A stretch of 31,675 bases of DNA from Candidatus Kaiserbacteria bacterium (GCA_016182285.1 JACOXQ010000028.1:1-31675); one strand, 5' to 3'; counted from the stretch's first letter, positions 12,917 to 31,675 are shown. Made by a program: numbers and translations. Notes: generated by a model from the letters alone, not told the origin.

Positions 12917-14055
12917 AGCTAATCTATCTCTCGCACTGGCGCTTTCCATCTGAAAAGACGCTAACGCCGTTTGTACTGCAAACTTGTGCCCATTTCGCGC
13001 GGCTCGGTTGGGAAGTGGAGCTGTGGGTCCCGCGCCGGCATAATAATTACAAGCCGGAGGAGGACGTGTTTGAGCTCTACCACATCTCTCCGCGGTTTGT
13101 CATACGCAGGCTCGCCTGCATTGATACAATGAGCTCTCTTGGCACATTCGGATTTTTACTCATGGTGCTTACGTTCAATATATCTGCGTATTTAAAATTA
13201 CGTCACGAGCGGATGGTCGTTATATATGCGCCGGATATTCGCGACGTTATCTTGCCGCTGCTTCGAGGCATGCCGGTCTTTGTGGAGATACACGACTTTT
13301 ATATAAGCTCGTTGGATTTTATCAATCGCTTCGTATTCAAGCGCGTTACAGGGCTTATTGTGACAAACTCGCATAAACTACGACACATTGCTCTCCATTA
13401 TCTTGTATCCGGCGAGCGGATGCTGCGTCAACCCAATGCGGTAGATGTGAAAGCCTTTGACATTTCTGCTACACAAGCGGAGGCGCGTAAAAGGCTTGGG
13501 CTGCCGTCAACCGGGAAGATCGCACTCTATACCGGGCATCTCTTCGCGTGGAAAGGCGTGCATACTCTTGCCGACGCGGCGGCATTTCTGCCGGCTGAAG
13601 TTTCGGTACTTTTCGTAGGCGGAACGCCAGAGGATCGCGCAGCGCTCGAGCGGTACGTTCATGACCGATCGCTACCGCGCATCGCCTTCGTGCCGCATCA
13701 GCCGTCTGACAAAATACCGCTCTATCAGAAAGCGGCGGACGTGCTCGTTCTGCCGAATACGGCGAAGGAAGAGGCTTCGCGCGTGGAAACTTCCCCGGTT
13801 AAACTCTTTGAATATCTCGCTTCCGGTAAGCCTATTGTTGCTTCTGACATCCCTTCAATCCGGGATATCGTCTCGGAGCGGGAGGTGTTCTTTGCTCAGC
13901 CGGACGATGGGGAAAGCTTCGCACGCGTCATTGTAGAAGCACTGTCTGGCGACACTGACCGCTCGAGCGCTGCGCGCTCTCTCGCTGAAAACAGCAGCTG
14001 GGAAAAGCGCGCGAAAAATATTGATGCCCTAATGCGCCGTCTCCTCCATGTTTAA
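12913..14055 (+). CDS. GT4 family glycosyltransferase
   Basis: Start ATG 12913 (ATGA overlap; MKLIYLSHWRFPSEK). YTGHL..WKGV, ADVLVLPN, TSPVKLFEYLASGKPIVASD. Confidence 0.9.
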   Translation: MKLIYLSHWRFPSEKTLTPFVLQTCAHFARLGWEVELWVPRRHNNYKPEEDVFELYHISPRFVIRRLACIDTMSSLGTFGFLLMVLTFNISAYLKLRHERMVVIYAPDIRDVILPLLRGMPVFVEIHDFYISSLDFINRFVFKRVTGLIVTNSHKLRHIALHYLVSGERMLRQPNAVDVKAFDISATQAEARKRLGLPSTGKIALYTGHLFAWKGVHTLADAAAFLPAEVSVLFVGGTPEDRAALERYVHDRSLPRIAFVPHQPSDKIPLYQKAADVLVLPNTAKEEASRVETSPVKLFEYLASGKPIVASDIPSIRDIVSEREVFFAQPDDGESFARVIVEALSGDTDRSSAARSLAENSSWEKRAKNIDALMRRLLHV

Positions 14056-15067
14056 AGCACTTACCTTCCGACCCGCTTCCATCGGCGATGCGCTGATGGG
14101 CAAATATTTTTTAGAGAACATCCGTGCGGAGCATCCCGATGCGCGGCTCGGCATCGTCGTCGGCAGCCGAGCCGGAATGCTGAAAGACTTGTTCGCGGGT
14201 GAACCTTGGCTGGAGGTGGTTGAGGCGAATCGCCGAAACCTACCGGCACTCATGAAGATGTGGCGAGGGTGGCGAGGAAGCGAAATTGTACTCACCAATT
14301 ACACGGCAGGCACGCTGAATCTGTCCGCCAAGCTCATGGGTCGTTTACTCGCCAAACGAGGAGCGCTCGCAGGATTTGATGACTCCTCTTCTGTGAATCA
14401 CTTTCTGTACGACCACTTGCTCCCGCGCCCGATACGCGACCGCGCGGTGCGTCTGCATGAATGCGATGCTTTGCAGGCTCTCGGGGTGCCAGTAGCGCAC
14501 GAGCGTCTGACGCTTCAGTACGTGCCGATGGTCGGCGTCGCGGAGAAGTTCAGCATCAGCGGGGACTATGTCATCGTGCATCTGTTTTCGGGAAGCAAGA
14601 CACGCGGACTGGAGACGGAGCAAATGCGAACCTTGCTTATTAAGCTGCATAAGCTCATGCCCGACATCACGTTGGTCCTTTCTGGCGGCGCTGGTGATGC
14701 TTCCGAAGCGGCCGAGGCGTCGGAGGGACTGCCAGCAGTTGTCATCGCGGGCCGTGCGTCACTCCAGGAACTTATGAATCTTATCGTTGGCTCAAGGGTA
14801 GTCGTCTCGCTTGATACGGGCGTCGGCCACTTGGCGGCACATCTTGGCCGTCCGCCGGTCATTATGTCCACCTGTCTCGGGCGAATAAGCTGGTGGGGTC
14901 CCGACCAGTATGGATTCAACAAGTTCACCACAGGCGGCCCCGGCATCCCGGCGGCGTTATTTACGCGTGCGGACCGCTGTGTCGGAGGCCACGTGTTCAA
15001 GTCGTACCCTGACTGCCTTGTCTCTATCGATATGCACGCTGTCGCAGAAAAGACCGCCACTGTCTAA
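14048..15067 (+). CDS. GT9 family glycosyltransferase (ADP-heptose:heptosyltransferase-like)
   Basis: RPASIGDALM, VHLFSG, AGRASLQEL, VVSLDTGVGHLAAHLG are GT9 (WaaC/WaaF/WaaQ-type) hallmarks. Confidence 0.85.
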   Translation: MFKALTFRPASIGDALMGKYFLENIRAEHPDARLGIVVGSRAGMLKDLFAGEPWLEVVEANRRNLPALMKMWRGWRGSEIVLTNYTAGTLNLSAKLMGRLLAKRGALAGFDDSSSVNHFLYDHLLPRPIRDRAVRLHECDALQALGVPVAHERLTLQYVPMVGVAEKFSISGDYVIVHLFSGSKTRGLETEQMRTLLIKLHKLMPDITLVLSGGAGDASEAAEASEGLPAVVIAGRASLQELMNLIVGSRVVVSLDTGVGHLAAHLGRPPVIMSTCLGRISWWGPDQYGFNKFTTGGPGIPAALFTRADRCVGGHVFKSYPDCLVSIDMHAVAEKTATV

Positions 15068-16317: not shown

Positions 16318-18150
16318 ATGGACCGTAAGGTAAAAGTGCTCCTCGTAGCACGGTATTACATTATCGAGCCCCTGGGACTTCTTCATCTCGTCGGGCTCGC
16401 CACATCACTCGGCTGTGAGGTGGATGTGGAACTCGTTCCCAACAACGACTTCACCGGCCTGTACCGGCGTGTGGAGGAGTGGAAGCCGGAATATGTGGGC
16501 TTCCAGATTTGGACGGGGTGGCATCTGCAGACCTTCGCCGCGTGCGACCGTGTGCGCTCTATGGGCCCGCAGGTCATCATCGGCGGTCCGCATGTCACCT
16601 ACTTCACGGAGGAGTGCGCCAAGCATGCCGACTATGTGGTCCGGGGCGACGGATTCAGAAACTTCCGTCGCATTCTGCAGGGCGAAATCGGGTGTGGGGT
16701 GCACTTCGACACCGAGCAATTGGCGGAGAAGTTCCCCTTGCCGAATCGGAGTATCGTGTATGACAAGTACCCGGTGCTCCGTGATAGCCCCATCCGGAGC
16801 ATGATCACATCAGTCGGGTGTCCGTTCACCTGTAGCTATTGCTATGCGCCGGAGTGGAACAAGATGTACGGCGGCTTTCATCACACACAGCGGTCGGTGG
16901 ACGACATCGTCCGCGAGGGTGTTGAAATCCGCGACCGATGGGGCGCGAAGATGATTTATCTTCAAGATGATATCTTCGGCTTCGACTACAAAGTGTGGTT
17001 GCCGGAGTTCGCTCGGCGGTGGAAAGAAGAAGTCGGTATCCCGTTTCATTGCCAGATAAGGCTGGAACTCACCCGCTATCGCGCGGGAGATGAACGGCTT
17101 GATTTGTTTGTGGAGGCGGGATGTACCGGCATTACTCTTGCCATTGAATCCGGCGATGCGTTCCTACGAGAGCATGTGCTACACCGCGAAATGACGGATG
17201 AGCTCATTCTGGATGGGTGCGATAAGATCCGTTCACGGGGGATGACCCTGCGTACGGAACAAATTTTGGCGGTGCCGTTCAGCAGTCTAGAGACCGACCT
17301 TTCCACTCTCGACCTCAACAATCGCATAGGACCGGAGATGGCATGGACATCCATCCTTGCCCCATACGGGGGTACAGAAATGGGGGACGTCGCTAAAGCG
17401 TTCGGATACTACAAAGGCGACAATGATGATCTTGAGGAGGAGTTCTTTAGGCGGAGCGTTATGCGGCATTCAAAAACGGCAAAGAATGCCATCGAGCCGG
17501 TAGTGCGCGAAATGGTTGAGTCCAATAAGGCAATGGAACGGGCGAATCGTCATTCGAAAAGTCCGCTCCGACGCCTTGAGGCGCGTGAGGTCGCACCGCT
17601 CGTTATGGAAGTGTCTATCCGCGACGAGCGGGACGAATTCTCCCGCAAGCATCTGAGGGGGCCGAAGCCGCTCTGCACGATTGAGTTCATGGATGATGAA
17701 GAAAATGATCGGTACGCCGATCAGATAGTCATTCTCCAGCGGCTCTTTATGTGGTTCTCGCTGGTCCCTGTGGCTATGGACTTGGCACAAAAATACGTGA
17801 TGCTCCCGCGAGAGGAATGGACGTGGAAGAAGCTCGGACAGGTGGCCTCAGAGCACTTTGAGGCGATCGGTAAGGGGAGTGATGCGGCACGATGGGTTCA
17901 AGAACTCATTCGCGCGTTCGGATGCTGTTCATTAGACGAGCTTCCGGATGTCGTGAGGGATAATCCTTACTACTTCGTATTTTTTCCTTCAAGCGCCGAG
18001 TTCGCCAAGCACGTGGTTGAATCTGGCGTCGTGCAAGAGAGCGCAGAGCCCGGTTTTCAGTTCGACAAGATTGGTCATGTGGCACGACACTGGCTGTTTG
18101 CCCGCTCGCTTTACAAAGTAGAGGAAAGCACGAAGCCAATCGCATCGTAA
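16318..18150 (+). CDS. Cobalamin-binding domain radical SAM enzyme with long C-terminal extension
   Basis: N-terminal B12-binding Rossmannoid domain (EPLGLLHL...VGFQIW...VIIGGPHVT); CxxxCxxC motif CPFTCSYC at 16819-16842; LQDDIF; LAIESGD. SD GGAGG at 16308-16312. Confidence 0.9.
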   Translation: MDRKVKVLLVARYYIIEPLGLLHLVGLATSLGCEVDVELVPNNDFTGLYRRVEEWKPEYVGFQIWTGWHLQTFAACDRVRSMGPQVIIGGPHVTYFTEECAKHADYVVRGDGFRNFRRILQGEIGCGVHFDTEQLAEKFPLPNRSIVYDKYPVLRDSPIRSMITSVGCPFTCSYCYAPEWNKMYGGFHHTQRSVDDIVREGVEIRDRWGAKMIYLQDDIFGFDYKVWLPEFARRWKEEVGIPFHCQIRLELTRYRAGDERLDLFVEAGCTGITLAIESGDAFLREHVLHREMTDELILDGCDKIRSRGMTLRTEQILAVPFSSLETDLSTLDLNNRIGPEMAWTSILAPYGGTEMGDVAKAFGYYKGDNDDLEEEFFRRSVMRHSKTAKNAIEPVVREMVESNKAMERANRHSKSPLRRLEAREVAPLVMEVSIRDERDEFSRKHLRGPKPLCTIEFMDDEENDRYADQIVILQRLFMWFSLVPVAMDLAQKYVMLPREEWTWKKLGQVASEHFEAIGKGSDAARWVQELIRAFGCCSLDELPDVVRDNPYYFVFFPSSAEFAKHVVESGVVQESAEPGFQFDKIGHVARHWLFARSLYKVEESTKPIAS

Positions 18151-18164
18151 TTGTTGGCACATTT

Positions 18165-18208
18165 AAAAATCCCGTCCCCGCTTCTCGCGCGGACGGGATT
18201 CCTTTTTT
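18165..18208. terminator. Bidirectional intrinsic terminator between the convergent radical SAM and hldC-like genes
   Basis: Perfect 10-bp stem AATCCCGTCC (18168-18177) / GGACGGGATT (18191-18200); T-run at 18203-18208 on + and A-run at 18165-18169 giving a U-tail on -. Confidence 0.8.
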
Positions 18209-18698
18209 ACTTTTTATACCGCTTGACGATGGTCTCGATGATGGTGGTGGTCGAGCGACCCTTCGTTTGCGGGGCAAGGTACACGCGGCCGCCGCCCTCC
18301 TCGACCGCCTGCTTCTCGGGAGCGAATGCAGGGGAGCGTTCACTCCCTTTACCCTTTACATGGATGTTCGGCCTAATCTTCCGCAGCCATGGGATAGGGC
18401 TCTTACTCCCGAAGATGAACACATAATCAACGCATGCAAGCGCCGCGAGTACCTCTGCCCGTTCGCGTGCAGGGACGATAGGCCGCAGGTCGCCCTTATT
18501 CTCTCGTACTGAAGCGTCGGAGTTCACTCCAAGGATAAGGAGGTCCCCAAGCTTTCGGGCGGCCGCCAGATTGCGCACGTGCCCTACGTGGATGATGTCG
18601 AAACAGCCGTTCGTGGTGATAACCTTCTTTCCGGCCTTTCGAGCGGCAGAAGCAATTTTTGCCGCCCTAGTAACTGAAATGATCTTTTGTTTTAACAT
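18207..18698 (-). CDS. hldC: HxGH nucleotidyltransferase, RfaE domain II / HldC-like (heptose-1-phosphate adenylyltransferase)
   Basis: TNGCFDIIHVGHVRNL, LILGVNSDASV, RPIVPARERAEVLAAL..VDYV, HVKG, STTTII. Strong SD TAAGGAG at 18710-18704. Confidence 0.85.
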   Translation of the reverse strand: MLKQKIISVTRAAKIASAARKAGKKVITTNGCFDIIHVGHVRNLAAARKLGDLLILGVNSDASVRENKGDLRPIVPARERAEVLAALACVDYVFIFGSKSPIPWLRKIRPNIHVKGKGSERSPAFAPEKQAVEEGGGRVYLAPQTKGRSTTTIIETIVKRYKK

Positions 18699-18710: not shown

Positions 18711-18739
18711 TTGTGTCTAGACAGACTTTACCATACACT
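18711..18739. promoter_or_regulatory. Overlapping divergent promoters for the hldC-like and gmhB-like genes
   Basis: Plus strand: TTGTGT (18711-16), 17 bp, TACACT (18734-39). Minus strand: extended -10 TGgTAAAGT at 18733-18725. Intergenic gap is only 54 bp. Confidence 0.5.
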
Positions 18740-18752
18740 AAAAGGCCTATAT

Positions 18753-19340
18753 ATGAAACAAGCAGTTTTTCTGGACCGGGAAGGCACGGTCATAACTTTG
18801 GGAGACGCTACCGGTCGCCTAAAAGACATCAAGCGCATGCGCCTATTACCAGGAGTGGCGAGTGCCATACGTCTGCTGAATAAGGCTGGTTTTGTGGTTA
18901 TCATACACACCAATCAGACCGTGGTCGCCTGGGGCCAGGTGTCTGAAAAGAAACTTCGGCATATACACGACGTGCTTTGTGAGCGATTGCGGAAGAAAGG
19001 AGCGCTGGTCGATGCGGTGTATTACTGCCCGCATCATCCCGAAGCCCCTCTGGAGAAATACCGCAAGGTGTGTAAATGCAGGAAACCAAAGGCCGGCATG
19101 ATGCTGGAGGCACTTAAGAAGTATCAGATAAAGGCCAGTCAAAGTTTTATGATAGGAGACAGCAGTAAGGATATTCTCGCAGGCAAGCGTGCAGGATTGC
19201 AGACGATATTGGTACAGACGGGCAATGCAGGCAAAGAGCGCGGAGCGGTGGCGGTAGAGCCCAACCATGTTGCAAAAGATCTTCTTGCCGCCGCTCACTA
19301 CATAAAAAATAAAAGCGCGTCCCGAAAGCTACGCGCTTGA
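18753..19340 (+). CDS. gmhB: HAD-IIIA phosphatase, D,D-heptose 1,7-bisphosphate phosphatase (GmhB)-like, with a DRE variant of motif I
   Basis: MKQAVFLDREGTV, TNQ, Zn site YYCPHHP...CKCRKPK.GM, motif IV MIGDSSKDILAG. Start ATG 18753 preferred over 18711. Confidence 0.85.
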   Translation: MKQAVFLDREGTVITLGDATGRLKDIKRMRLLPGVASAIRLLNKAGFVVIIHTNQTVVAWGQVSEKKLRHIHDVLCERLRKKGALVDAVYYCPHHPEAPLEKYRKVCKCRKPKAGMMLEALKKYQIKASQSFMIGDSSKDILAGKRAGLQTILVQTGNAGKERGAVAVEPNHVAKDLLAAAHYIKNKSASRKLRA

Positions 19341-19913: not shown

Positions 19914-20873
19914 ATGCGCTCCACTAAAAAAATCTTGATTATCGGCGACCTTATCCTTGACGTATTCCATCACGGCACATACATTGGTCAATCGTTGTCG
20001 CATGCAAAAACACCGGTAGCATTAAGCCGTTCCTCAACTTACACATGGGGTGGAGCCGGGTTTGTGGTGCGTAACATGTTGGCTCTCGGCGGCAAGATCT
20101 CTTTTATTTCGGCCCTCGGCAATGACGACTTTGCCGAACGAGCGAATCGCTTTACTCATCCCAACCTTAAAAAATTATTTCTCCACATTCCACACAAACC
20201 GACGACGGTTAAACAGCGCTTTTGGATGGGAGAAAAGAGCCTGCTCGGCTGGCATCAGTTTGACAACTCGTTCCTCTCAGAGACATTCGCACGCACATTG
20301 CTCGCGCGCGTGCGCGCTGAATTACCCTCCGTAAACAAAGTCGTTATTGCTGATTACCGGCACGGTCTCCTGTCACCAACGCTGGCTAAAAAAATAGTCG
20401 ACGAATGTGCACATCTGCATGTACCGCTTTATGTTGATTCACAAATTTCCTACGATAACACCGGCAATCATATTTGGTACAGAGGAGCGTCATTGTTTTG
20501 TCTGAATCAAAAGGAGGCTCGAAGCATCGATCCGCGATTTAATCAAAATAAACCGGAAACTTCGCTCCTTCGTCTTCAAAAGATGCTTGGAGCTCAAGAT
20601 ATTGTAATCAAACTTGGCGCACAAGGTTCCATTGCTTTGATAGGCGATGAGTACGTTAAAACCGTCGCACATAAGGTGCGTGAGGTAGACAGCACTGGGG
20701 CCGGGGACGCGTTTATCGCCGCTCTCGCACTTGGAGAAGCTCCACCGACACGCGAAGATTTGGAGCGAGCAAACCTCTGGGCCGCTCTTTCAACGACTAA
20801 AATAGGAACCGTCATTTCTCCTACATCTGAATTTAAAGCCCATCTTAAAAAGCACCTCTCACGTCGCCGTTGA
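19914..20873 (+). CDS. PfkB/ribokinase family sugar kinase, RfaE domain I / HldA-like
   Basis: ILIIGDLILD, WGGAGFV..N, TTVKQRF, IADYRHG, VIKLGAQG, VDSTGAGDAF. The RISPEAPVPV segment of canonical HldE is replaced by QSLSHAKTPVA. Confidence 0.82.
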   Translation: MRSTKKILIIGDLILDVFHHGTYIGQSLSHAKTPVALSRSSTYTWGGAGFVVRNMLALGGKISFISALGNDDFAERANRFTHPNLKKLFLHIPHKPTTVKQRFWMGEKSLLGWHQFDNSFLSETFARTLLARVRAELPSVNKVVIADYRHGLLSPTLAKKIVDECAHLHVPLYVDSQISYDNTGNHIWYRGASLFCLNQKEARSIDPRFNQNKPETSLLRLQKMLGAQDIVIKLGAQGSIALIGDEYVKTVAHKVREVDSTGAGDAFIAALALGEAPPTREDLERANLWAALSTTKIGTVISPTSEFKAHLKKHLSRRR

Positions 20874-20939: not shown

Positions 20940-21683
20940 GTGCGAGAGCTACATAACGGCCTTCGGGTCGTCACACTCAACATGGACTGGAACAAGAATC
21001 TTGGTCGGGTTCTGCCGTTCCTGTCGGACCGTCAAGCAGATGTTGTCTGCTTGCAAGAAGTGCGTGAAGACGCCCTTCCGGTCATCGCCGAGGCGGCCGG
21101 AAACTATTACTTCTATGCGCCTATGTGCGGAGGTAAGATACATGGAGCACCTAGCACAGTCGGCATCGCGATATTCTCGCGACTGCCACTTCTGCAGACG
21201 AAGGCACGCTATTACGTTGGTGCGGCTCACCGGATCGTTGAACTTGACGAACAAACGCTGGAGAGCCGTCGAGCGACGACCTATCGGGCACTTGCGTTCG
21301 GTGGCGTGCAAAGAGGCGATACGGTCTATCGTATCGTCACCACGCATTTCACCTGGACACCAGACGGGAAAGCGGATGAATTCCAACGGCACGACCTTCA
21401 AAAGATGCTTGGACTGTTGCAGAAAGAAGGCGAATATCTCTTGTGCGGGGACTTCAACGCGCCGCGCGGGGGTGAAATTTACAAGACCCTCTCGCAGAAA
21501 CTGAAGGACAATGTGCCAGCGCACTACGTCACCAGTATTGACCCGGAGCGCCATCGCATCAAAGGGCTCAAGTCAATGGTGGATGGTCTTTTCACCACTT
21601 CTGGGTACGTTGTCTCGGATGTGCGCTTGCATTTCGGGGTGAGCGACCATGGCGCATTAGAGGCCGTTGTGTCGCGAGAGTGA
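20940..21683 (+). CDS. Endonuclease/exonuclease/phosphatase (EEP) family hydrolase
   Basis: [31 protein letters not shown] and SDH are the full EEP catalytic set. GTG start with a good SD. Confidence 0.88.
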
Positions 21684-21855: not shown

Positions 21856-23181
21856 ATGAACATGAAATGCAAGAAAACGGTGTATGTCGCCATGAGCGCC
21901 GACTTGGTGCATCCGGGGCACCTGAACATTATTAAAGAAGGCGCGAAGCTCGGCGAGGTGACGGTTGGGCTTCTCACCGACGAAGCCATCGCGAGCTACA
22001 AGCGTCTGCCATATATGCCGTACTCGCAGCGTAAGGAGGTCGTGGAGAACATCAAGGGCGTCTCGCGTGTCATTCCGCAGGTGACGCTAGACTATCGTCC
22101 GAACCTGAAAAAGCTGAAGCCGGATTATGTCGTCCACGGTGATGATTGGAGGATGGGCGTCCAGCGCGAGACGCGCAAGCAGGTCATAGAGACACTTAAG
22201 AAGTGGGGCGGCAAGCTCGTGGAGCCGGAATACACGCGCAACATCTCATCAACGGCACTCAATAATGCGCTCAAAGAAATAGGGACGACACCCGACATCC
22301 GCCTGCGGCGATTCCGCCGTCTGATCGAGACGAAGCCCCAGATCCGCGGCATTGAGGTGCATAACGGTATTACCGGTCTTATCGTAGAGCATGTCTCGGT
22401 GACGAAGGGTAATAAACGAGAAGAGTTCGATTTTATGTGGCTTTCAAGCCTTACCGACTCCACCGCGAAGGGCAAGCCCGACACCGAGCTGGTGGACTCA
22501 ACGTCGCGCTTCAATACTATCCATGAGATATTGGAAATTACCACGAAGCCGATTATCTATGACGGCGACACCGGCGGACAGGCCGAACATTTCCCGTATC
22601 TGGTGCGCACACTTGAGCGCCTTGGCGTTTCCGGCGTCATTATTGAAGATAAACAAGGGCTCAAGAAGAATTCGCTCTTCGGCACCTCGGTCGCACAGCA
22701 TATGGCAGACCCACGACTTTTCAGTGAGAAGATACGCGAACGGAAGAAGGCGCAGGTGACACCCGACTTCCTCATCATCGCGCGGCTCGAGAGCATGATC
22801 GCCGGCAAGGGAGTCGCCGATGCCTTGAAGCGCGCCAAAATGTATATTGATGCAGGCGCGGACGGCATTATGGTCCACAGTAAGGAGAAGAGCCCCAAAG
22901 AAGTGCTCGAGTTCTGCAAGGAATACAAGAAGTTTAAGCGCAGAGTTCCGCTCATCGCCGTGCCGACGACCTACGACACCATCACAGAGAAGCAACTTGA
23001 AAAAGCCGGCGTGAACGTCGTGATTTATGCGAACCATCTGCTCCGAAGCGCGTATCCCGCGATGTTGAAGACGGCTGAACTCATTCTGACTCACGGCCGC
23101 GCATCAGAAGTGGCGGAATATTGCATGCCTATCTCGCAAATCCTGACGCTCATAGAGCGCAAAGGCAATGGTGCATCCTGA
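21856..23181 (+). CDS. pepM: Phosphoenolpyruvate mutase fused to an N-terminal HxGH cytidylyltransferase domain (Fom1/AepX-type architecture)
   Basis: N-terminal [14 protein letters not shown] (HPGH 21910-21921), LLTDEAI, VVHGDDW. C-terminal PEP mutase with WLSSL, DGDTGG and the diagnostic EDKx5NS motif [10 protein letters not shown] (22645-22674), [20 protein letters not shown]. Start ATG 21856 or 21862. Confidence 0.95.
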
Positions 23182-24301
23182 AAAATTCATTGAGTCGCTC
23201 CGCCGGAACGGCATCTCGTTCTTCTCCGGCGTTCCCGATTCACTGCTAAAAGACTTGCTTGCATATATCGAGCAGAATGTTCCCGCGTATGAGCGTATCA
23301 CCGCGGCGAACGAAGGCAATGCGATAGCGATAGCCGCCGGATACCATCTGGCGACCGGCAAGGTCGCCGCAGTATATATGCAAAATTCAGGTATCGGCAA
23401 CGCAGTCAACCCGCTGACCTCACTTGCGGACAAAGATGTGTATGCAATCCCAATGCTACTCATCATCGGGTGGCGCGGCGAGCCGGGTGTCAAGGACGAG
23501 CCGCAGCATAAGAAGCAGGGCCGGATTTCGGACAAACTGCTTGATGTTCTTGAAATTCCCCATGCGGTGCTTTCAAAAACGATGTCCGGCGAAGCAATCG
23601 CATCGGAAGTCGCGCGGCTTGCCGCCCTTTCGCGGACGGAAGGACGTCCGTGCGCGCTTTTGGTGAAGAGCGGGACATTTGAGGCGTATCCTATGCGCAA
23701 GCCCGTCGCCGAGGCTGGCTCTCTCGGCAGGGAAGAGGCGATTGGGTTGGTGCTCGATAGTTTGGATGGAGGTGAAATCGTCGTCAGTACGACGGGGAAG
23801 ATTTCGCGTGAATTATACGAAGAAAGAAAGAATCGCGGCGAGAGTTTCGGAAAAGATTTTTTGACGGTCGGTTCCATGGGTCATGCATCGCAAATTGCTT
23901 TGGGGATAGCGCATCAGAAAAAAGACAGGCAGGTGTATTGTCTGGACGGCGACGGCGCTACCATTATGCATATGGGCGGACTCGCCACCGCAGGTTGGAT
24001 GCATCCTAAAAACTTTAAACACATCGTTCTCAACAATCTTGCGCACGAATCGGTCGGAGGCCAGCCGTCTGCCGCGAGCATCGTAGATCTTCCGGGCGTT
24101 GCAAAAAACTGCGGATACGCATTCGCATCAACAGCCGCAACGAAGGAAGATCTGCCGCCGCGGCTCGCAGAGCTCAAAGAGAAGAACGGACCGGCTTTCC
24201 TAGAGATACGAGTGAATCTGGAATCCAGAAAAGACCTCGGTCGTCCGAAAGAAAGTCCGTTTGAGAACAAGAAGAAATTCATGGATTTTATCGGGAAATA
24301 A
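23168..24301 (+). CDS. ppd: Phosphonopyruvate decarboxylase (ThDP-dependent, single-chain)
   Basis: [65 protein letters not shown], ThDP motif [11 protein letters not shown]...NN; directly follows pepM with a 14-nt overlap. Confidence 0.95.
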
Positions 24302-24312
24302 TCGTTGCCCGT

Positions 24313-25305
24313 ATGAAACAAACGGAATACATCGGCGCAGGAGAGCTCTCCAAACTCTCTGGCATCGTGCAGGATTTCGCACCCAGTAAAGTGTTTTTAA
24401 TAACAGGTAAGAGCTCATACATAGCGTCCGGCGCGACACAACTCGTTGAGCTCGCGCTCGCGGGAATAGATGTTTTGCATTATACCGACATTAGTGCATT
24501 ACCTCTCGACGAAGACATTAAAAAAGGAGTTATAGCGTATACATCTTTCAATCCAGACCTTGTTATCGCTGTCGGTGGCGGACACGTCATTGATATGACG
24601 AAATCTATTAACTTCCTGGCTGGTAAAAAACCGCTCGTAGCGATTCCGACTACAGCAGGCACTGGTAGCGAGGCGACCTCGTTTTCGGTCGTATACAAAA
24701 ACGGGCGCAAAACATCGCTTGAGAGTCCGGACATGCTGCCGATGTTCGCTATCGTGGACCCGAATCTCGCGATGAGCGTATCAAGAGAAACCGCTTTACC
24801 GAGTGCACTTGACGCGCTCTGCCAGGCGATAGAATCGTTCTGGTCAAACAAGGCGACGGAAGAGTCGCGCGGATACGCGCGGCAAGCACTCCAACTTATA
24901 TGGAAAAACATTATTCCGGCGATTGAAAAAAGAGACAGCGGCGCAATTACAGCATTGTGTATCGGGGCGCATCTGGCGGGGAAGGCCATTAACATTTCCA
25001 AAACTACCGCGTGTCATGCTTTTTCCTATGGACTCACGTATCGTTTCGGCGTCCCGCACGGCATCGCAGTTGCCCTATTCCTTCCGAGCGTATACCGGTA
25101 CAATAACGTCTCGGGTCTGTCGATGTCTCCAGAAGATATTGAAGGGCTGCTTAGAAGATTTGGCATAACGAACCTGTCGCAGTATGGGGTCAAACCATCC
25201 GACATTGCGATGCTTGCGGCGGAGGTCAATACTGAAAGATTGGGCAATAATCCGCGCGTAATCCGCGAAGGGGACATTATTAACTTTTTTCAGAAAATCG
25301 TATAG
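24313..25305 (+). CDS. Group III iron-containing alcohol dehydrogenase, probable phosphonoacetaldehyde reductase (PhpC/FomC-like)
   Basis: AVGGGHVID, IPTTAGTGSEAT, DALCQAIESFWS, TTACHAFSY...GVPHG; position directly after pepM-ppd. Confidence 0.85.
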   Translation: MKQTEYIGAGELSKLSGIVQDFAPSKVFLITGKSSYIASGATQLVELALAGIDVLHYTDISALPLDEDIKKGVIAYTSFNPDLVIAVGGGHVIDMTKSINFLAGKKPLVAIPTTAGTGSEATSFSVVYKNGRKTSLESPDMLPMFAIVDPNLAMSVSRETALPSALDALCQAIESFWSNKATEESRGYARQALQLIWKNIIPAIEKRDSGAITALCIGAHLAGKAINISKTTACHAFSYGLTYRFGVPHGIAVALFLPSVYRYNNVSGLSMSPEDIEGLLRRFGITNLSQYGVKPSDIAMLAAEVNTERLGNNPRVIREGDIINFFQKIV

Positions 25306-25308
25306 CGT

Positions 25309-26121
25309 ATGGAATCCATCAAAGAACTTCGCGTCAAATTGCAGACTAATGTTCTCGGACACCCGATTTTACAGCGCGTGCCCTCAATATATGTAACCCG
25401 TCTTTTTCTCCTGACAAGTATAACGGCCAATCAAATATCGGCTGTCATGATTATCGTCGGTATCATTTCAGGGGTGGTTATAGCATTCGGCTATATATGG
25501 TTAGGCCTCGCCCTTATTTATTTGAACTTAGTGCTTGATGCTGTTGATGGCGAACTCGCGCGCTATAAAAAAACATTTTCTATGCGCGGTGTCTATCTGG
25601 ACCTCGTTAATCATCTCGTGGTATTTGAAGCATTCTTTCTCGGACTCACGCTCGCGGTGTCAGAAGTATGGACGAGACCAAACTTCGTACTGCTGACTGT
25701 AGGGATTGTCGGCGCGCTTGCTATGTGCATGCGGCGAGCCATCGGAGACCTGCATCGCGTTCTTTTTGTCCGCTCTTATAGCGAGCATCCTGACCTATTT
25801 CGCATCCCGCCAACTTCTTCAGAGGCCAATACCGGAACCGCGTCGGGCGCCAAGCCTTCTTCGTTTCGAGTTCTGATGAAAAACATCCTTTGGTATCTTC
25901 ACGAATCACACGAGGGAGGATACATGATTGTCGTCCTCGTGATTGCATATGCCGCGGAACGTCTCCTTCTGCCCGGAGCGCTCCATTATCCGATTCTCTC
26001 CTGGGTCGTGCTCTATTACGGCGTGACGTTGTGCTTGTATCTGACTCGAGAGATTATCGGCGGATTCTACTCCATTGAGAGCCGCATTGCTTCTTTAAGA
26101 GACCGATTTGCCTCAAAATGA
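25309..26121 (+). CDS. CDP-alcohol phosphotransferase family membrane protein (variant motif)
   Basis: TANQIS, and DAVDGELAR-x8-GVYLD-LVN-H at 25537-25614 matches DxxDGxxAR...GxxxDxxxD except for the last residue; several TM segments. Confidence 0.85.
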   Translation: MESIKELRVKLQTNVLGHPILQRVPSIYVTRLFLLTSITANQISAVMIIVGIISGVVIAFGYIWLGLALIYLNLVLDAVDGELARYKKTFSMRGVYLDLVNHLVVFEAFFLGLTLAVSEVWTRPNFVLLTVGIVGALAMCMRRAIGDLHRVLFVRSYSEHPDLFRIPPTSSEANTGTASGAKPSSFRVLMKNILWYLHESHEGGYMIVVLVIAYAAERLLLPGALHYPILSWVVLYYGVTLCLYLTREIIGGFYSIESRIASLRDRFASK

Positions 26122-28007
26122 GTGAGAACAAGAAAAACTTATTTATTATTTATGAACTCGAGCACCTACCGGTGCTCGAGAAGCGATTAGCAACTGGAGA
26201 AAAATTTGAAGTAGTGGCGCTCGACTGGGAGGTAGAGCTTGAACTTAAGAATCGCGGGATTCCGTATATGCCGCTCCGGGAACTAGCGAAGTCGCCGGAA
26301 GGGGAGCGCGGACCAGTTGAGTTCACGCGAAAGCTCGCGCGAACCTGGTATCGGGAGAAGGGCTTCGCCTTTTTCGCGCACGACGGCATTCTGCTCGGGG
26401 AGCCGTATGAAATGCCCTTTTTGTATTACTTCCAGATGCTTTACTATAACCTCTCCGTCATCGGGCAGGTACTCGAACGCCTGCGGCCGAGCCGCGTCGT
26501 CATTCCCGAATCATTTCGATATGTGCCGAAGACGGCACTGCCGACCGAGGCGCCGTTCGTACAGATTCCGTCTGCTGTCGCCCGTCATCTCGCGCAGGTG
26601 CGCGGTCTCGAATGTGAAGTAATTGAAGTCCCTGCGGCGTATCGGCATCGGGGTGAACGACAGGCAATAGTGCGCGGCATTACAGAACGTCTTGCGCGCG
26701 CGGTCACGGCCGTAGTGAATGCCGCGGTCAGTCTCCGCAGACCGCGTGCGATAAGGCTTTTCGCGACTGACCCGTGGTCACGCATAGCTCCCTTCGTGCG
26801 CGCCATGCCGGATCTGGAGGTCGTGATGTCCCGTCGGCACGAGCTCCTCGCCATGAAAAGCGACGTATGGCGCGCCCGCGCCCGTTTCCATCATAGGCTG
26901 GACTTCGCCGGCGCACACGAGAGAACGATCGCACGCGAAAAAGCCAAGAAGTTCACTCGCGCCTTTGAGGCGCTTGGAGAGAGACCGGAAGTTGCACGGG
27001 CGTTCGTTCATGACGGCATATCACTGTGGGAAGTGGCGCGCGAAGCGCTAAGAGCGGTGATAGCGAGCGGTGAGGATATGATACAGACGATTGAGAGCAC
27101 TAAGCGCCTGCTCTCGCGGCGGCGGATTAACTGTGTCCTGCTCTTCAGTTCAGTTAAGGGATACAACAACATCATCGCTCGCGTCGCCGAACGGGCGGGC
27201 ATTCCCTGTATTGACCTGCAGCATGCACTTGCTCCAATGGATTCCAATCATCCGTATTCCCGTCTTTCTGCGCATTACCTCGCCTCATACGGCCCGCACA
27301 TGGTTCGCCAGTACGCCGCATTCGGAGTAGACCCGTCGCGGGTCATACCCATCGGTTCTCCTCGCTTTGATTCATATACCAAGCCCATGCCGGAGTCCGC
27401 GCTGGCGGCCGTGCGCGAAAAATTGCGGCTAGAGACGTCCAAACCCACGGCATTGCTCGGCATCCCGTTCGTCTTTCCCCAGATAGATTATTATGGATTC
27501 ACGAGTTATGGTGCGCGCGACATTATTGAGGATCTCGCAAACCTTGCTCGCGAAAACATGGCGAATCAGTTCATTCTGCGCCCGAAGCCCGGACCCGAAC
27601 GCTTTAGTTTTTATAACCGCAAGGAGACTCTGGAACTTTTCGGCAGCCGCGCGCGCATGGCGCAATTTGAGAACCTGCGCGCTCTGCTTTCGCTCTCGGA
27701 TATCGTCGTTTCCATGAATTCTACGCTTGCGCTTGAAGCGCTCATCCTCCATCGGCCGGTCATTCTCTACCTGACACCCCGGCTAGACCACGATTTTGAT
27801 GACTGGGAGGCGGCAGGAGCTCTGCGCATCGCCCGCGACCGGACGGAGCTCGCCCGCCATTTCAATGGCCTGCAGTCGGCTGATGCGCGCGAAGAGCAAG
27901 TCCGGCGCGCTGATAAGTTTCTTGCAGAGCAATTCTGCTTTGACGGCCGTTCTCGGGAGCGCATGGCCGCATTTTTACGCAAGGTCGTCGCCGAGCACCA
28001 GTCCTGA
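26118..28007 (+). CDS. 629-aa hypothetical protein with a C-terminal GT-B-like domain (TagF/capsule-polymerase-like)
   Basis: DLQHA, VIPIGSPRFD, LRPKPG and LLSLSDIVVSMNSTLALEALILHRPVI resemble the C-terminal Rossmann lobe of CDP-glycerol/CMP-sugar transferase-like surface-carbohydrate proteins. ATGA-coupled to the CDP-AP gene. Function not assignable. Confidence 0.6.
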   Translation: MSENKKNLFIIYELEHLPVLEKRLATGEKFEVVALDWEVELELKNRGIPYMPLRELAKSPEGERGPVEFTRKLARTWYREKGFAFFAHDGILLGEPYEMPFLYYFQMLYYNLSVIGQVLERLRPSRVVIPESFRYVPKTALPTEAPFVQIPSAVARHLAQVRGLECEVIEVPAAYRHRGERQAIVRGITERLARAVTAVVNAAVSLRRPRAIRLFATDPWSRIAPFVRAMPDLEVVMSRRHELLAMKSDVWRARARFHHRLDFAGAHERTIAREKAKKFTRAFEALGERPEVARAFVHDGISLWEVAREALRAVIASGEDMIQTIESTKRLLSRRRINCVLLFSSVKGYNNIIARVAERAGIPCIDLQHALAPMDSNHPYSRLSAHYLASYGPHMVRQYAAFGVDPSRVIPIGSPRFDSYTKPMPESALAAVREKLRLETSKPTALLGIPFVFPQIDYYGFTSYGARDIIEDLANLARENMANQFILRPKPGPERFSFYNRKETLELFGSRARMAQFENLRALLSLSDIVVSMNSTLALEALILHRPVILYLTPRLDHDFDDWEAAGALRIARDRTELARHFNGLQSADAREEQVRRADKFLAEQFCFDGRSRERMAAFLRKVVAEHQS

Positions 28008-28021: not shown

Positions 28022-28040
28022 AAATTTGTTAAAATTGCGC

Positions 28041-29045
28041 ATGAAGAAAAAACGCTATACGGGAATAGTCATCGGCTGCGGAAGAATCGGCGCTACGTTT
28101 GATATTGACAGCGGACTCCTGAAGCCGGCCTCTCATGCCGCCGCATTTGCCACTAACCCGCGCACAACTCTCGCGGCGCTGGTTGATTCGGATCCGATAC
28201 AGCTCAAGCGGGCCGGAGAGTATTACAACGTCACGACCTACGCCGACGCGCGCGAATGTCTGAAGGCGCTCATGCCCGACATAGTCGCTCTTGCGACCCC
28301 GCCTGGCACTCACGAAGAAATGCTGACTCTGGCTCTGGAGCTCCACATCCCTGCCATTATCTGCGAGAAACCGCTGAGCGATACGCTTGAGTCGGGCGAA
28401 CGCATGGTAGCGCAAGCCGCATTGTCAGATTCAGTCGTTGTTCTCAACCATCAACGACGCTTCCTCCCTTTATATAAGAATGCGAAGGAAAGAATTGCGG
28501 CGGGAGAATTGGGAGATATCCAGCAGGCTACTGCCTACTATACGAACGGTCTCTTGAACAATGCGACTCACACGCTGGATGCTCTGCAATTCCTGCTTGA
28601 TGACACAGCGGTATGGACTATCGGCGTACAGAACGAGCACAACACGGCTGCGCCTTTTGGCACTAATATTGACGGGCTCGTCGGATATAAGAAAGGTACT
28701 GTGGCGGTGCTACAGAGCTTCGACACTAATTCATATGGAGTGCACGATCTGCAGATCCTTGGGACTAATGGCGCCCTGATTATCCGACAGCAGGGATTCC
28801 GTTTTGAGTGGGTGCCGGTACGGGAGGGAGTCACCTTCTCCGGAGTAAAAGAGTTAGATTGGATGAGCGCGCAGACACAGACAGACCCTCGCAGTATGAT
28901 GGAGGGTACTATAGCTCACGCGGTTGAGTGCCTCGACGGAACGGTAGAGTCGCAGAGCACGCCTGAAGACGGTTACCGTACGATGCAGATTCTCGATGCG
29001 CTCGTGCGAAGCGCGGCAGAAGGAGGGAAACGAGTAATTATATAA
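28041..29045 (+). CDS. Gfo/Idh/MocA family NAD(P)-dependent oxidoreductase
   Basis: IVIGCGRIG, DIVALATPPGTH, ICEKP, VLNHQRRF, NNATHTLD. ATG 28041 chosen over TTG 28026, which lies only 4 nt from the -10 box. Confidence 0.9.
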   Translation: MKKKRYTGIVIGCGRIGATFDIDSGLLKPASHAAAFATNPRTTLAALVDSDPIQLKRAGEYYNVTTYADARECLKALMPDIVALATPPGTHEEMLTLALELHIPAIICEKPLSDTLESGERMVAQAALSDSVVVLNHQRRFLPLYKNAKERIAAGELGDIQQATAYYTNGLLNNATHTLDALQFLLDDTAVWTIGVQNEHNTAAPFGTNIDGLVGYKKGTVAVLQSFDTNSYGVHDLQILGTNGALIIRQQGFRFEWVPVREGVTFSGVKELDWMSAQTQTDPRSMMEGTIAHAVECLDGTVESQSTPEDGYRTMQILDALVRSAAEGGKRVII

Positions 29046-29048
29046 CGC

Positions 29049-30338
29049 ATGAAAAAAATACAAGACAGACCTGTATTTCTCGGAGGCACACCGGTGCTCG
29101 CAAAGCCGCTTCCCCCCATCCATGTGGTGGACAGAGAGGAGATAGCTGCTATAACCCGAGTTATCAATCGGGGTCCTTTATCGGGATTTGCCGGCGTGCA
29201 CAGTGAACGATTTTTCGGCGGAGAAGAAGTGCGCGCATTTGAAGCGGAGTTTTCAAAAAAATTCAAAGTGAAACATGCCGTATCGTTTAATTCGGCTACC
29301 ACGGCGCTTCATGGCGCCATCGTGGCGCTCGGCATCGGGCCAGGCGACGAGGTCATCGTGCCACCCTACACGATGTCGGCATCGGCGACCGCCGTACTGA
29401 TGAACGGCGCGATACCCATTTTTGCCGACATTGACGAGCGGACGTTCTGCATAGACCCGAAATCGGTGGAGAAACGGATTACGAAATACACTAAGGCCGT
29501 TATGGCCGTAAATCTTTTGGGGCAGGGCGCTGACTTTGCGGCGCTTTTGCCGCTCGCAAAAAAGCACAAACTTGCCATCATTGAGGACAACGCGCAGTCG
29601 CCGGGCGCCACCTGGCGCGGGAAGCCGCTCGGCACCGTGGGTGATATCGGTGTTTTTAGTTTGAATGTGCACAAGGCGATACAAACGGGCGAAGGAGGAA
29701 TTCTGGTTACGAATAATCCGATTTATGCGCTTCGCGCGCAGCTGTGCCGCAACCACGGCGAAGCCGTCGTTGACGACATGACCGATTACGACGCCGGACC
29801 AATCTTCGGCAGTAACTACCGCATGACAGAAGTCGTAGCAGCGATGGCGCGCGTGCAGTTGCGGCGGCTCGACTTCTTGACGAAAAAACGTGTCGCGCTT
29901 GCCGCGCGGCTCACGAAGGCACTGGCGCAGATCCCAGGTCTCACGCCGCCCTTCGTGCATTCCGGCAATACGCATGTCATACATCGGTACGCGATCCGAG
30001 TAGACGAAAAGAAGCTCGGAATCTCGCGAGATAGGCTTGTTGAAGCAATGGCCGCCGAGGGATTCAGCATGTCTCGCGGGTATGTGAAGCCGATCTATCT
30101 GCTGAAGCTGTTCCAAGAACGTAAGGCATTTAATCGCACCGGTTTTCCGTTTGAAAAAAATACCTACTACAAAGGGAACCCCGATTATTCAAAAGGGCTC
30201 TGTCCGGTCACCGAACGGATGTTTGAAAAAGAATTCACGTTCACCGATGTCTGTCAGTACCCCTACACGGCGCGGCACACTGATCTTTTTGTTGCCGCAT
30301 TGAAGAAGATTATTGCCTATAAGCATGAGCTCGCATAA
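29049..30338 (+). CDS. DegT/DnrJ/EryC1/StrS family PLP-dependent sugar aminotransferase
   Basis: NSATTALH, IGPGDEVIVPPYTMSASA, IEDNAQSPG, SLNVHK (PLP lysine), TGEGG, GSNYRM. Confidence 0.93.
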   Translation: MKKIQDRPVFLGGTPVLAKPLPPIHVVDREEIAAITRVINRGPLSGFAGVHSERFFGGEEVRAFEAEFSKKFKVKHAVSFNSATTALHGAIVALGIGPGDEVIVPPYTMSASATAVLMNGAIPIFADIDERTFCIDPKSVEKRITKYTKAVMAVNLLGQGADFAALLPLAKKHKLAIIEDNAQSPGATWRGKPLGTVGDIGVFSLNVHKAIQTGEGGILVTNNPIYALRAQLCRNHGEAVVDDMTDYDAGPIFGSNYRMTEVVAAMARVQLRRLDFLTKKRVALAARLTKALAQIPGLTPPFVHSGNTHVIHRYAIRVDEKKLGISRDRLVEAMAAEGFSMSRGYVKPIYLLKLFQERKAFNRTGFPFEKNTYYKGNPDYSKGLCPVTERMFEKEFTFTDVCQYPYTARHTDLFVAALKKIIAYKHELA

Positions 30339-31353
30339 ACGCATCCTCTGGAGCGCGAACGACCCAGGTGGAATGAACGCAATTATGCCGGTCATTTCTG
30401 CACTTGTCGCGCGCGGGGATATAATCGTCGGCCTTGCCACCGGTCCTGCGGTCGCTATGGCCAAACAAAAGGAGATTGCGGTAAAAAACGCGACGGCGTA
30501 TTCTGACGCGGAATTGTTGGAAAAAATCAATGCCGTGCGCCCCGATGTATTTCTCGCCGGTTCAAGCTCCGGCAATTCAATAGACAAAAAAATATTCAGG
30601 CTCATTCCGCATGTCCCATCGGTGTATGTGCTTGATTTCTGGTCCAATTACCGGATGCGTTTCAGCGCGGATGGAGATGACCTCAAATACTCTCCGACCG
30701 CCATCTGCATTATTGATGAACTCGCGCGGAACGAGATGCTCGCCGCTGGTTTTGAAGATAGCCGGCTCCATGTTACTGGCAACCCGCACACCGAGCATTT
30801 TATCGAAGATATTACACGCGATCGCGAGAACGCACACGAGCTGGTCTTCATTTCCCAGCCTATACGCGAAGTGGACGGCGGAAAATACGGTTTTGACGAA
30901 CATCTAGTGCTCGGGCACCTTATTCGTGCCGTGCAAAAAATGCCAGAACCGTTTCATCTGCGCATACGCCTGCATCCTAAGGACGAGCGACACAAATTTG
31001 ACGGGCTTCTCGGCGGGCGCGTTTCAATGTCTCCGGCCCACTCGCTTGAAGAGTCTCTCTCTACTGCGGGACTCGTGGTCGGCATGTTCTCTCCGGTACT
31101 CATCCAAGCGGCCACGTCGGGGAAGCGGGTGCTCTCGTATGAGCCCTGCCTGACAGGCGAGGACCCTCTTATAACGAACCGCCTCGGCCTTACAAAGAAG
31201 CTCACAACCGAACTAGAGTTGAATGAGGCGTTGGGAAAATACGCTGAGGGCGAATCGCATGCTACCGCGCTTGATGTAAATAAACTCTGGCCGAAAGGTG
31301 CTGTCGGGCGCATTTTGCAGGTCATTGATTCTCTTGTTCCACCGCGTGCATGA
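30325..31353 (+). CDS. Hypothetical GT-B-like surface-carbohydrate protein
   Basis: ANDPGG, VLDFWSNY, VTGNPH, FISQP, LRIRLHPKD and VVGMFS.VLIQA suggest a two-lobed GT-B fold. Start ATG 30325 (ORF track uses TTG 30313). Confidence 0.6.
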   Translation: MSSHKRILWSANDPGGMNAIMPVISALVARGDIIVGLATGPAVAMAKQKEIAVKNATAYSDAELLEKINAVRPDVFLAGSSSGNSIDKKIFRLIPHVPSVYVLDFWSNYRMRFSADGDDLKYSPTAICIIDELARNEMLAAGFEDSRLHVTGNPHTEHFIEDITRDRENAHELVFISQPIREVDGGKYGFDEHLVLGHLIRAVQKMPEPFHLRIRLHPKDERHKFDGLLGGRVSMSPAHSLEESLSTAGLVVGMFSPVLIQAATSGKRVLSYEPCLTGEDPLITNRLGLTKKLTTELELNEALGKYAEGESHATALDVNKLWPKGAVGRILQVIDSLVPPRA

Positions 31354-31363
31354 ATCCGTTGAT

Positions 31364-31675
31364 ATGAAAAAAGTTGAAGTACAAGTCATTATTCAAGCTC
31401 GTATGGGTTCAAGCCGCCTGCCGGGAAAGATATTGAAGCCGTATGTAGGCGGTTACGCCGTCTTGGAATGGATTATTGAGCGCGCCCGGCTTTCCACGCG
31501 CGCCGAACGCGTGGTCGTTGCGACTACTACGAATCAGAAAGACGACGCCACCGAGGATGCGTGCAGGCGCATCGGATGTGATTTCGTGCGCGGAAGCGAA
31601 GACGATGTGCTCGCGCGTTTTGCGGATGCAGCACGCGCATACCCCTCAGATGTCATCCTGCAGATAAACGCTGAC
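31364..31675 (+). CDS. SpsF/PseF/KdsB-type acylneuraminate cytidylyltransferase family protein (3' end truncated; missing from the ORF track)
   Basis: My translation: MKKVEVQVIIQARMGSSRLPGKILKPY...VVATTTNQKDD...RGSEDDVLARF...ILQINAD. QARMGSSRLPGK and RGSEDDVLxRF are SpsF-type signatures; 104 codons open to the window end. Confidence 0.92.
   Translation, partial: MKKVEVQVIIQARMGSSRLPGKILKPYVGGYAVLEWIIERARLSTRAERVVVATTTNQKDDATEDACRRIGCDFVRGSEDDVLARFADAARAYPSDVILQINAD

Follow-up and report, generated by a model that had tools for sequence, protein, structure and literature searches.

The head groups of most membrane phospholipids are products of CDP-alcohol phosphotransferases (CDP-APs), whose mechanism is centered on four aspartates. 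In the standard reaction, an acceptor hydroxyl attacks the β-phosphorus of a CDP-alcohol and CMP is lost. Solved members of the family include AF2299 from Archaeoglobus fulgidus (PDB 4o6m/4o6n/4q7c) and IPCT-DIPPS (PDB 4mnd). The PDB entry titles name AF2299 just "a CDP-alcohol phosphotransferase," and we know of no physiological substrates assigned to it. IPCT-DIPPS has two activities fused, a cytidylyltransferase that makes a soluble CDP-alcohol and a membrane domain that transfers it, and both substrates are soluble inositol derivatives.

In fosfomycin biosynthesis, CMP-2-hydroxyethylphosphonate (CMP-HEP) is methylated by Fom3 and then hydrolyzed. The early steps of that pathway are those of Fom1 (CyTase-PepM), Fom2 (Ppd), and FomC (Fe-ADH), and it is the Fom1-type PF01467 domain fused to Ppm that makes CMP-HEP (PMC6697681). 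A CDP-AP gene belongs to the seven-gene core of the group 1 phosphonolipid ppm clusters, also called "Burkholderiales_CDP-OH" (Li & Horsman 2022, PMC8942020). There, the CDP-AP (e.g., Mycetohabitans WP_076794436) is predicted to install the phosphonate head group. CDP-AP genes in ppm clusters and the CMP-activation of phosphonates have been described and predicted but not characterized (PMC8942020, PMC6697681). Our literature search found no paper on Patescibacteria (CPR) with PEP mutase or phosphonates.

A phosphonate cassette that includes a CDP-AP gene

We analyzed a 31.7-kb window (the whole stretch of DNA, 31,675 nucleotides) from a 0.5-Mb CPR assembly that is 78% complete. It contains five tightly packed genes, and the fourth encodes the CDP-AP, P0001. 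The features of this cassette are as follows.

21856-23181 (+): cytidylyltransferase-PEP mutase fusion (CyT-PepM), Fom1-like (PF01467 and PF13714; TIGR02320, 378.8 bits, cutoff 319.55)
23168-24301 (+): phosphonopyruvate decarboxylase (Ppd) (TIGR03297, 477.6 bits, cutoff 312.5)
24313-25305 (+): Fe-dependent alcohol dehydrogenase (Fe-ADH), probable phosphonoacetaldehyde reductase making HEP (PF00465/PF25137)
25309-26121 (+): P0001, CDP-AP-family membrane protein of 270 aa, His-type AF2299-like branch (PF01066, branch profile, AlphaFold model)
25537-25614 (+): signature motif of P0001, D77xxD80GxxARx8G94xxxD98xxxH102 (direct reading of the translation)
25612-25614 (+): CAT codon of His102, which takes the place of the fourth signature Asp (D4) (alignment to AF2299 and the Burkholderiales ppm-cluster CDP-AP)
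26118-28007 (+): GT-B-fold transferase, 629 aa (weak TagF [PF04464] and BFO_1060-family similarity in the C-terminal half)

The CyT-PepM gene probably starts at the ATG at 21856; the longest ORF begins with a TTG at 21667. Its product carries the HPGH motif and the 10-residue EDKxxxxxNS motif. With an EDKxxxxxNS PepM fused to a PF01467 cytidylyltransferase, and a Ppd above its cutoff, the window has a probable CMP-HEP-forming module. The best NCBIfam match of the Fe-ADH was TIGR03405 (Phn_Fe-ADH), at 157 bits and below the 423.7 cutoff; its position and synteny fit the assignment. The P0001 ORF has no internal stop. Its ATG lies 3 nt past the stop (TAG) of the Fe-ADH gene, as the first-pass annotation of this DNA had claimed, and its TGA overlaps the ATG of the GT-B gene as ATGA. 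The P0001 gene is translationally coupled on both sides in the window.

An AF2 model of the GT-B partner (pLDDT 81) gave only generic GT-B matches in Foldseek (UDP-GlcNAc 2-epimerase, MshA, and TagF 3l7k), and a sequence search against solved structures gave no match. The BFO_1060 family is a Tannerella nonulosonic-acid transferase family (PMC5420450). The family hints for this protein, TagF, the BFO_1060 family, and Capsule_synth in another CPR genome (G351), are all CMP-dependent enzymes. Judged by these similarities, the GT-B partner could use CMP-HEP or the CMP-sugar encoded downstream. It and the TagF-like enzyme in Segatella are not orthologues.

The three genes upstream of P0001 match in type those of the early fosfomycin steps, down to the fused PF01467 domain. 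However, CMP-HEP is transient in fosfomycin biosynthesis, whereas the window has a transferase next, in a surface-glycan context. The slot of P0001 is that of the LicD- or TagF-type phosphotransferases of phosphonyl-tailoring (Pnt) clusters, and the formal transfer from a CMP-activated donor would be the same. However, those enzymes have unrelated folds, are soluble or peripheral, and act on glycans, whereas P0001 has a polytopic membrane CDP-AP fold. The Burkholderiales_CDP-OH genes share with the window a CDP-AP clustered with a cytidylyltransferase-Ppm fusion and Ppd. Even so, P0001 is not an orthologue of the group 1 CDP-AP (38% identity over 53 residues, in the motif region only). The latter has DxxxD, its pathway leads to AEP (by an aminotransferase) and not to HEP, and it lies beside genes for a 2OG oxygenase and a protein with an LPG-synthase domain. 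Judged by sequence, the P0001 gene is a separate, non-orthologous recruitment from the uncharacterized His-type branch described below.

P0001 resembles AF2299 and has His at the fourth Asp position

Residues 77 to 102 of P0001 read D-AV-DG-EL-AR-YKKTFSMR-G-VYL-D-LVN-H, with D77 encoded by the GAT at 25537. The ending DxxxH, and its CAT codon, are exactly as first annotated. P0001 passed the PF01066 gathering threshold over residues 39 to 145 (26.8 bits; cutoff, 22) and has the family signature D1xxD2GxxAR...GxxxD3 (D77, D80, G81, A84, R85, G94, and D98). The fourth Asp of the family, D4, is absent, and His102 is found instead. P0001 is a member of the CDP-AP family in which D4 is replaced by His.

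NCBIfam matches of P0001 were to archaetidylinositol-phosphate synthase and DIPP synthase models, all of them distant and far below cutoffs. With a profile of the branch, AF2299 was the best solved match (E = 3.7e-27, 98.8 bits) and IPCT-DIPPS was next (E = 1.3e-15), whereas CDP-DAG enzymes matched at 1e-11 or weaker. H102 aligns exactly with the last Asp (D4) of the AF2299 signature LD-GVL-D. The AF2 model of P0001 is all-helical (pLDDT 95, pTM 0.89). The first-pass annotation had proposed a structural comparison, and the top Foldseek matches of the model were AF2299 (4o6n/4o6m), followed by PIP synthases (PIPS), PgsA1, and DIPPS (probability 1.00, TM 0.5 to 0.57). P0001 has in common with the AF2299/DIPPS sub-group the DGE-x-AR core and a juxtamembrane R-x-x-S...N-Q region at the N terminus. 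By profile and predicted fold, P0001 belongs closest to this sub-group, which uses soluble CDP-alcohol donors. However, the AF2299 motif ends in DxxxD and the protein carries a cytoplasmic domain at its N terminus, whereas P0001, with DxxxH, carries no extra domain but has additional helices at its C terminus. IPCT-DIPPS also has Asp at D4, and the cytidylyltransferase that is fused to its membrane domain is fused to PepM in the P0001 system instead.

The histidine is conserved in a large branch of the family

The first-pass annotation had raised the alternative that the His is unique to this sequence, through drift or sequencing error. In a word-indexed search, however, at least 83 of 90 homologues had His at the H102 position, down to ~30% identity; the named ones were from Paceibacterota and Kaiserbacteria. 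We also used HMMER to scan exhaustively 1.84 billion cluster representatives (50% identity). The scan gave 2,937 matches at E ≤ 1e-3, of which 389 reached E ≤ 1e-10. Among the best 146 new representatives listed (P0091 to P0236), 121 had [DE]xxxH (114 DxxxH and 7 ExxxH) and 2 had DxxxD. Drift or error private to the window is ruled out by these counts, and His102 is a signature of a large AF2299-like CDP-AP branch. In an alignment of 84 branch sequences, there is no variation at D77, D80, G81, R85, or H102 and almost none at A84, G94, or D98. The mean column identity of this alignment is 23%, and the motif and the His have been kept despite it, which indicates selection on the active site.

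In Mycobacterium tuberculosis PgsA1, D4 is a ligand of the second metal and is presumed to act as the catalytic base (PMC6506517). Because His replaces that residue, the His-type branch (389 clusters at 50% identity, E ≤ 1e-10) is a natural test of the four-Asp mechanism. Streptomyces and Nonomuraea orthologues have Ala in place of the His, which calls for caution about an essential catalytic role for position 4. In the literature searched, we found no description of the His-type (DxxxH) branch and no biochemical data on any member.

The DxxxH motif is not specific to phosphonate loci

We examined whether the change from Asp to His marks a phosphonate-specialized subfamily, as the first-pass annotation had claimed, and whether it is enriched beside pepM. 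In reference genomes, with one genome per species, the 80 best loci included 21 with DxxxH and 57 with DxxxA (mostly Streptomyces, also Nonomuraea). PepM, Ppd, and the CyT domain were absent within 10 kb in all 80, so that PepM was near 0 of the 21 His-type loci. PepM was present in 9 of the 40 His-type metagenome loci that had a complete gene and readable context. In a census of 401 CPR genomes, 8 had a His-type gene and 11 had PepM. The two were adjacent in 2 of the 8 His-type genomes only (the window's genome and G351), and PepM was absent genome-wide from the other 6. This coincidence gave a Fisher p of 0.018 with the window's genome, but 0.16 without it. The census enrichment is weak, and it is not significant once the window's genome is removed.

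Several independent His-type branches distant from the window also adjoin PepM (L135, L154, L158, L138, and G351/L178). In the reverse case, the CDP-APs of Burkholderiales_CDP-OH ppm clusters have a canonical DxxxD, aligned with H102, in both Mycetohabitans and B. cenocepacia. There was no CDP-AP near the PepM of a Burkholderia stagnalis plasmid. The association between DxxxH and phosphonates is recurrent, but it is neither necessary nor sufficient. Therefore, from the reference loci, the metagenome loci, the census, and the Burkholderiales enzymes, DxxxH is not phosphonate-specific. The subfamily claim fails on both sides, with DxxxH common in non-phosphonate loci and DxxxD kept in a ppm-linked CDP-AP, and the motif is unusable as a genomic marker of phosphonate transfer.

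One CPR genome (G085) has an AF2299-like CDP-AP with DxxxD at a contig edge (L179, C33:316-987) and PepM at another (L188, C34). This DxxxD-type CDP-AP may be linked to PepM across the assembly gap.

Gene order is conserved in relatives of the window

The relatives of the window with complete genes, at 42 to 89% identity, form one clade (SH-aLRT 99%). The whole order of CyT-PepM, Ppd, Fe-ADH, CDP-AP, and GT-B is kept in five loci (L088, L089, L091, L093, and L094). In eight more (L090, L092, L095 to L098, L102, and L107), contig ends leave an adjacent part of the order. The window's orthologue group is phosphonate-linked wherever context is readable. In a basal sister (L099), two RtcB-like genes precede the CDP-AP and GT-B pair, and the 7.5 kb upstream contain no PepM. 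The clades next to the window clade are PepM-free and are flanked by RtcB-like genes and GT4 glycosyltransferases. The tree was a quick IQ-TREE with SH-aLRT supports. It is weak in its deep branches, and several long branches come together in it; we drew only on the window clade, which is well supported, and on the sisters next to it.

P0001 as a candidate CMP-HEP transferase

We propose that P0001 probably uses CMP-HEP as the donor of a phosphonyl group for a membrane-bound acceptor. We infer the donor, the acceptor, and the role of His102 from its family, fold, motif, and His conservation, together with the synteny and the identities of the genes for HEP synthesis and CMP-activation. The transferase function suggested in the first-pass annotation survives in this form, separated from the idea that the His is a mark of phosphonates. 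Two observations speak for it: the orthologue clade comes right after CyT-PepM, Ppd, and Fe-ADH, and the same slot elsewhere holds LicD- or TagF-like enzymes. Specifically, Fe-ADH is followed by a LicD-family protein in Fulvitalea and in two CPR genomes (G375 and G388), by a TagF-like enzyme alone in Segatella copri, and by a CDP-AP and a large GT-B in the window, L135, and G351 (L178). Because the genes that follow this HEP module encode different transferases across genomes, the position after Fe-ADH is a transferase slot.

In the proposed pathway, the PepM domain would convert PEP to phosphonopyruvate, Ppd would convert this to phosphonoacetaldehyde, and Fe-ADH would reduce it to HEP. The fused cytidylyltransferase would then make CMP-HEP, as in Fom1. 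CMP-HEP would act as an analogue of a CDP-alcohol, with a P-C bond replacing P-O-C at the β-phosphorus. P0001 is predicted to be an active integral-membrane phosphotransferase with the CDP-AP fold, in which the metal and the diphosphate would be bound by D77, D80, and D98. Attack by a hydroxyl of the acceptor on the phosphorus of the phosphonate would release CMP and give an acceptor-O-P(O2)-CH2CH2OH ester. The part of D4, as general base, second-metal ligand, or both, would fall to His102. One point against this model is that D4, the presumed catalytic base and second-metal ligand of characterized enzymes (PMC6506517), is replaced.

The acceptor is probably membrane-bound, at the cytoplasmic face. 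A lipid acceptor of the diacylglycerol or polyprenol type would give a hydroxyl-terminated phosphonolipid. Alternatively, the acceptor might be a lipid-linked sugar of the surrounding surface-glycan locus. To our knowledge, no CDP-AP transfers to glycan, so family precedent favors a lipid or small-molecule acceptor. The glycan-locus context and the coupled GT-B gene favor a lipid, or an intermediate linked to one, that is then extended with further groups, and the GT-B transferase would act next on that same intermediate. P0001 thus adds a third candidate class of CMP-phosphonate transferase to the LicD and TagF-like enzymes. The CDP-AP would be the class that could yield a phosphonolipid, and it is found here in CPR bacteria.

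Most of the branch is not phosphonate-linked, and therefore donor specificity cannot be read from the family. This leaves room for a reading in which P0001 uses another nucleotide-activated donor (a CDP-alcohol or other NMP-activated phosphoester) and is a mere neighbor in the glycan island. The GT-B would then be the real CMP-HEP transferase, which by analogy it could be, given the lone TagF-like enzyme after the HEP genes of Segatella copri. The PepM-free CDP-AP and GT-B pair of L099 fits this reading, as do the many His-type relatives in non-phosphonate loci. However, the CDP-AP lies between Fe-ADH and GT-B in 5 of 5 orthologous loci with fully readable upstream genes, and the shorter contigs agree as far as they extend. 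Its coupling on both sides in the window also argues against a mere neighbor. No other CDP-alcohol-making enzyme is encoded in the window, where the other nucleotidyltransferases match two families, heptose-1-phosphate adenylyltransferase (RfaE domain II) and CMP-sugar synthetase. In addition, the best hints for the GT-B are CMP-nonulosonate transferases, and it lies beside a nonulosonic-acid-like branch. We consider this reading unlikely, although it is the one that we take most seriously besides our own.

The kinship of P0001 with AF2299 and IPCT-DIPPS, including the N-terminal region that the three have in common, would also suit an enzyme that makes a soluble phosphonodiester without modifying a lipid or glycan, much as DIPP synthase joins CDP-inositol and inositol phosphate. 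This is improbable for a gene that is coupled to a GT-B gene inside a 30-kb surface-glycan locus, and whose relatives have mostly GT4 glycosyltransferase and flippase genes as neighbors. Loss of D4, and the Ala tolerated at that site in actinobacterial orthologues, might instead mean that P0001 is a noncatalytic scaffold or membrane anchor for the GT-B partner. We give this very little weight, because D1, D2, the G, the R, and the His are invariant, and D3 nearly so, across a very divergent branch, and because His is a competent base and metal ligand. Finally, the original idea that Asp-to-His enables attack on the phosphonate phosphorus and defines a phosphonate-specific subfamily can draw on the census coincidence and on the several PepM-linked branches, but it is scarcely credible when 6 of 8 His-type CPR genomes and all 21 reference loci are without PepM, the phosphonate clade is nested inside RtcB- and GT4-linked, PepM-free His-type clades, and Burkholderiales ppm clusters use DxxxD enzymes.

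The surrounding locus

By its gene content, the window is a surface-glycan locus. Outside the cassette, it encodes GT4, GT2, GT9, and PMT_2 proteins, methyltransferases, sugar-nucleotide dehydratases, ADP-heptose genes, and the nonulosonic-acid-like branch. The features discussed here are as follows.

14048-15067: GT9 heptosyltransferase
16318-18150 (+): B12-binding radical-SAM protein, 610 aa, 3.5 kb upstream of the phosphonate cassette
18207-18698 (-): RfaE domain II adenylyltransferase
18711-19340: GmhB phosphatase
19914-20873: HldE-like kinase
28026-31675 (+): GFO/MocA oxidoreductase, PseC-like aminotransferase (230 bits), 346-aa protein without a family, and the 5' part of a CMP-sugar synthetase gene (CTP_transf_3)

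The CTP_transf_3 gene is cut by the window end. The families of the genes from 28026 to 31675 suggest that a nonulosonic-acid-like sugar is made beside the phosphonate genes. Downstream of the cassette, DegT recurs in L088, L091, and L093, and CTP_transf_3 recurs in L088, L093, and L094. ADP-heptose-type genes, which are unusual for a CPR bacterium, lie between the radical-SAM gene and the phosphonate cassette.

The radical-SAM protein had weak, sub-threshold matches to PhpK-family P-methyltransferases (50 bits) and HpnJ (64 bits), and its PDB match was AprD4. Its gene adjoins CyT-PepM in L088, and in L093 it lies on the other strand, ~6 kb upstream. As far as the contigs of L089, L091, and L094 extend upstream, there was no match. 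Going by its matches, it is possibly a Fom3-like modifier of CMP-HEP. However, because the matches are sub-threshold and the gene is near the cassette in 2 of ~6 loci with enough upstream sequence, we did not assign it to the pathway as a Fom3 analogue.

Other contexts of the branch

In actinomycetes, the gene order is nucleotidyltransferase, Fe-ADH_2 (glycerol-1-phosphate dehydrogenase family), CDP-AP, and GT2. By analogy, this unit would follow the same logic of making an alcohol phosphate, activating it, and transferring it. A DUF5941 gene is nearby. The actinobacterial orthologues switch between Ala and His at D4, with Ala in 57 loci of Streptomyces and Nonomuraea (within L005 to L079) and His in Streptosporangiaceae (L012, L038, and L047).

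In ~23 loci from CPR and Planctomycetota, a His-type CDP-AP gene is immediately preceded by one or two RtcB-like genes (PF01139) in the same direction. They include L101:5279-8173, L099:4592-7533, L103, L106, L113, L115, L121, L002, and L026 (Pirellulales). Usually, no cytidylyltransferase is nearby. In L101, one RtcB-like paralogue keeps HGAG (with the GMP-accepting His of RtcB), and the other reads SPSAA at the aligned segment. Based on these features, the CDP-AP may receive a GMP-activated donor made by the RtcB-like pair. A literature search found no paper on a module of RtcB and CDP-AP.

More speculatively, DxxxH CDP-APs might be general membrane "head-group primases," which place diverse nucleotide-activated phospho- or phosphono-groups onto lipid and so anchor surface glycans in CPR, DPANN, Planctomycetota, and Actinomycetota. 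The donor modules would be exchangeable, being CyT-PepM/Ppd/Fe-ADH, the nucleotidyltransferase with Fe-ADH_2, or the RtcB-like pair. We regard this generalization as doubtful. If it were true, then the RtcB-like pair would activate a phosphomonoester as X-P-P-G, a route that we know of only in RNA ligation.

A separate observation concerns "Candidatus Stammera capleta," a beetle symbiont. It has 22 plasmids of ~9 kb (CP144773 to CP144858 and CP145604), in unannotated records, and each encodes a protein of the PepM/isocitrate-lyase family with 37 to 44% identity to the PepM domain of the window.
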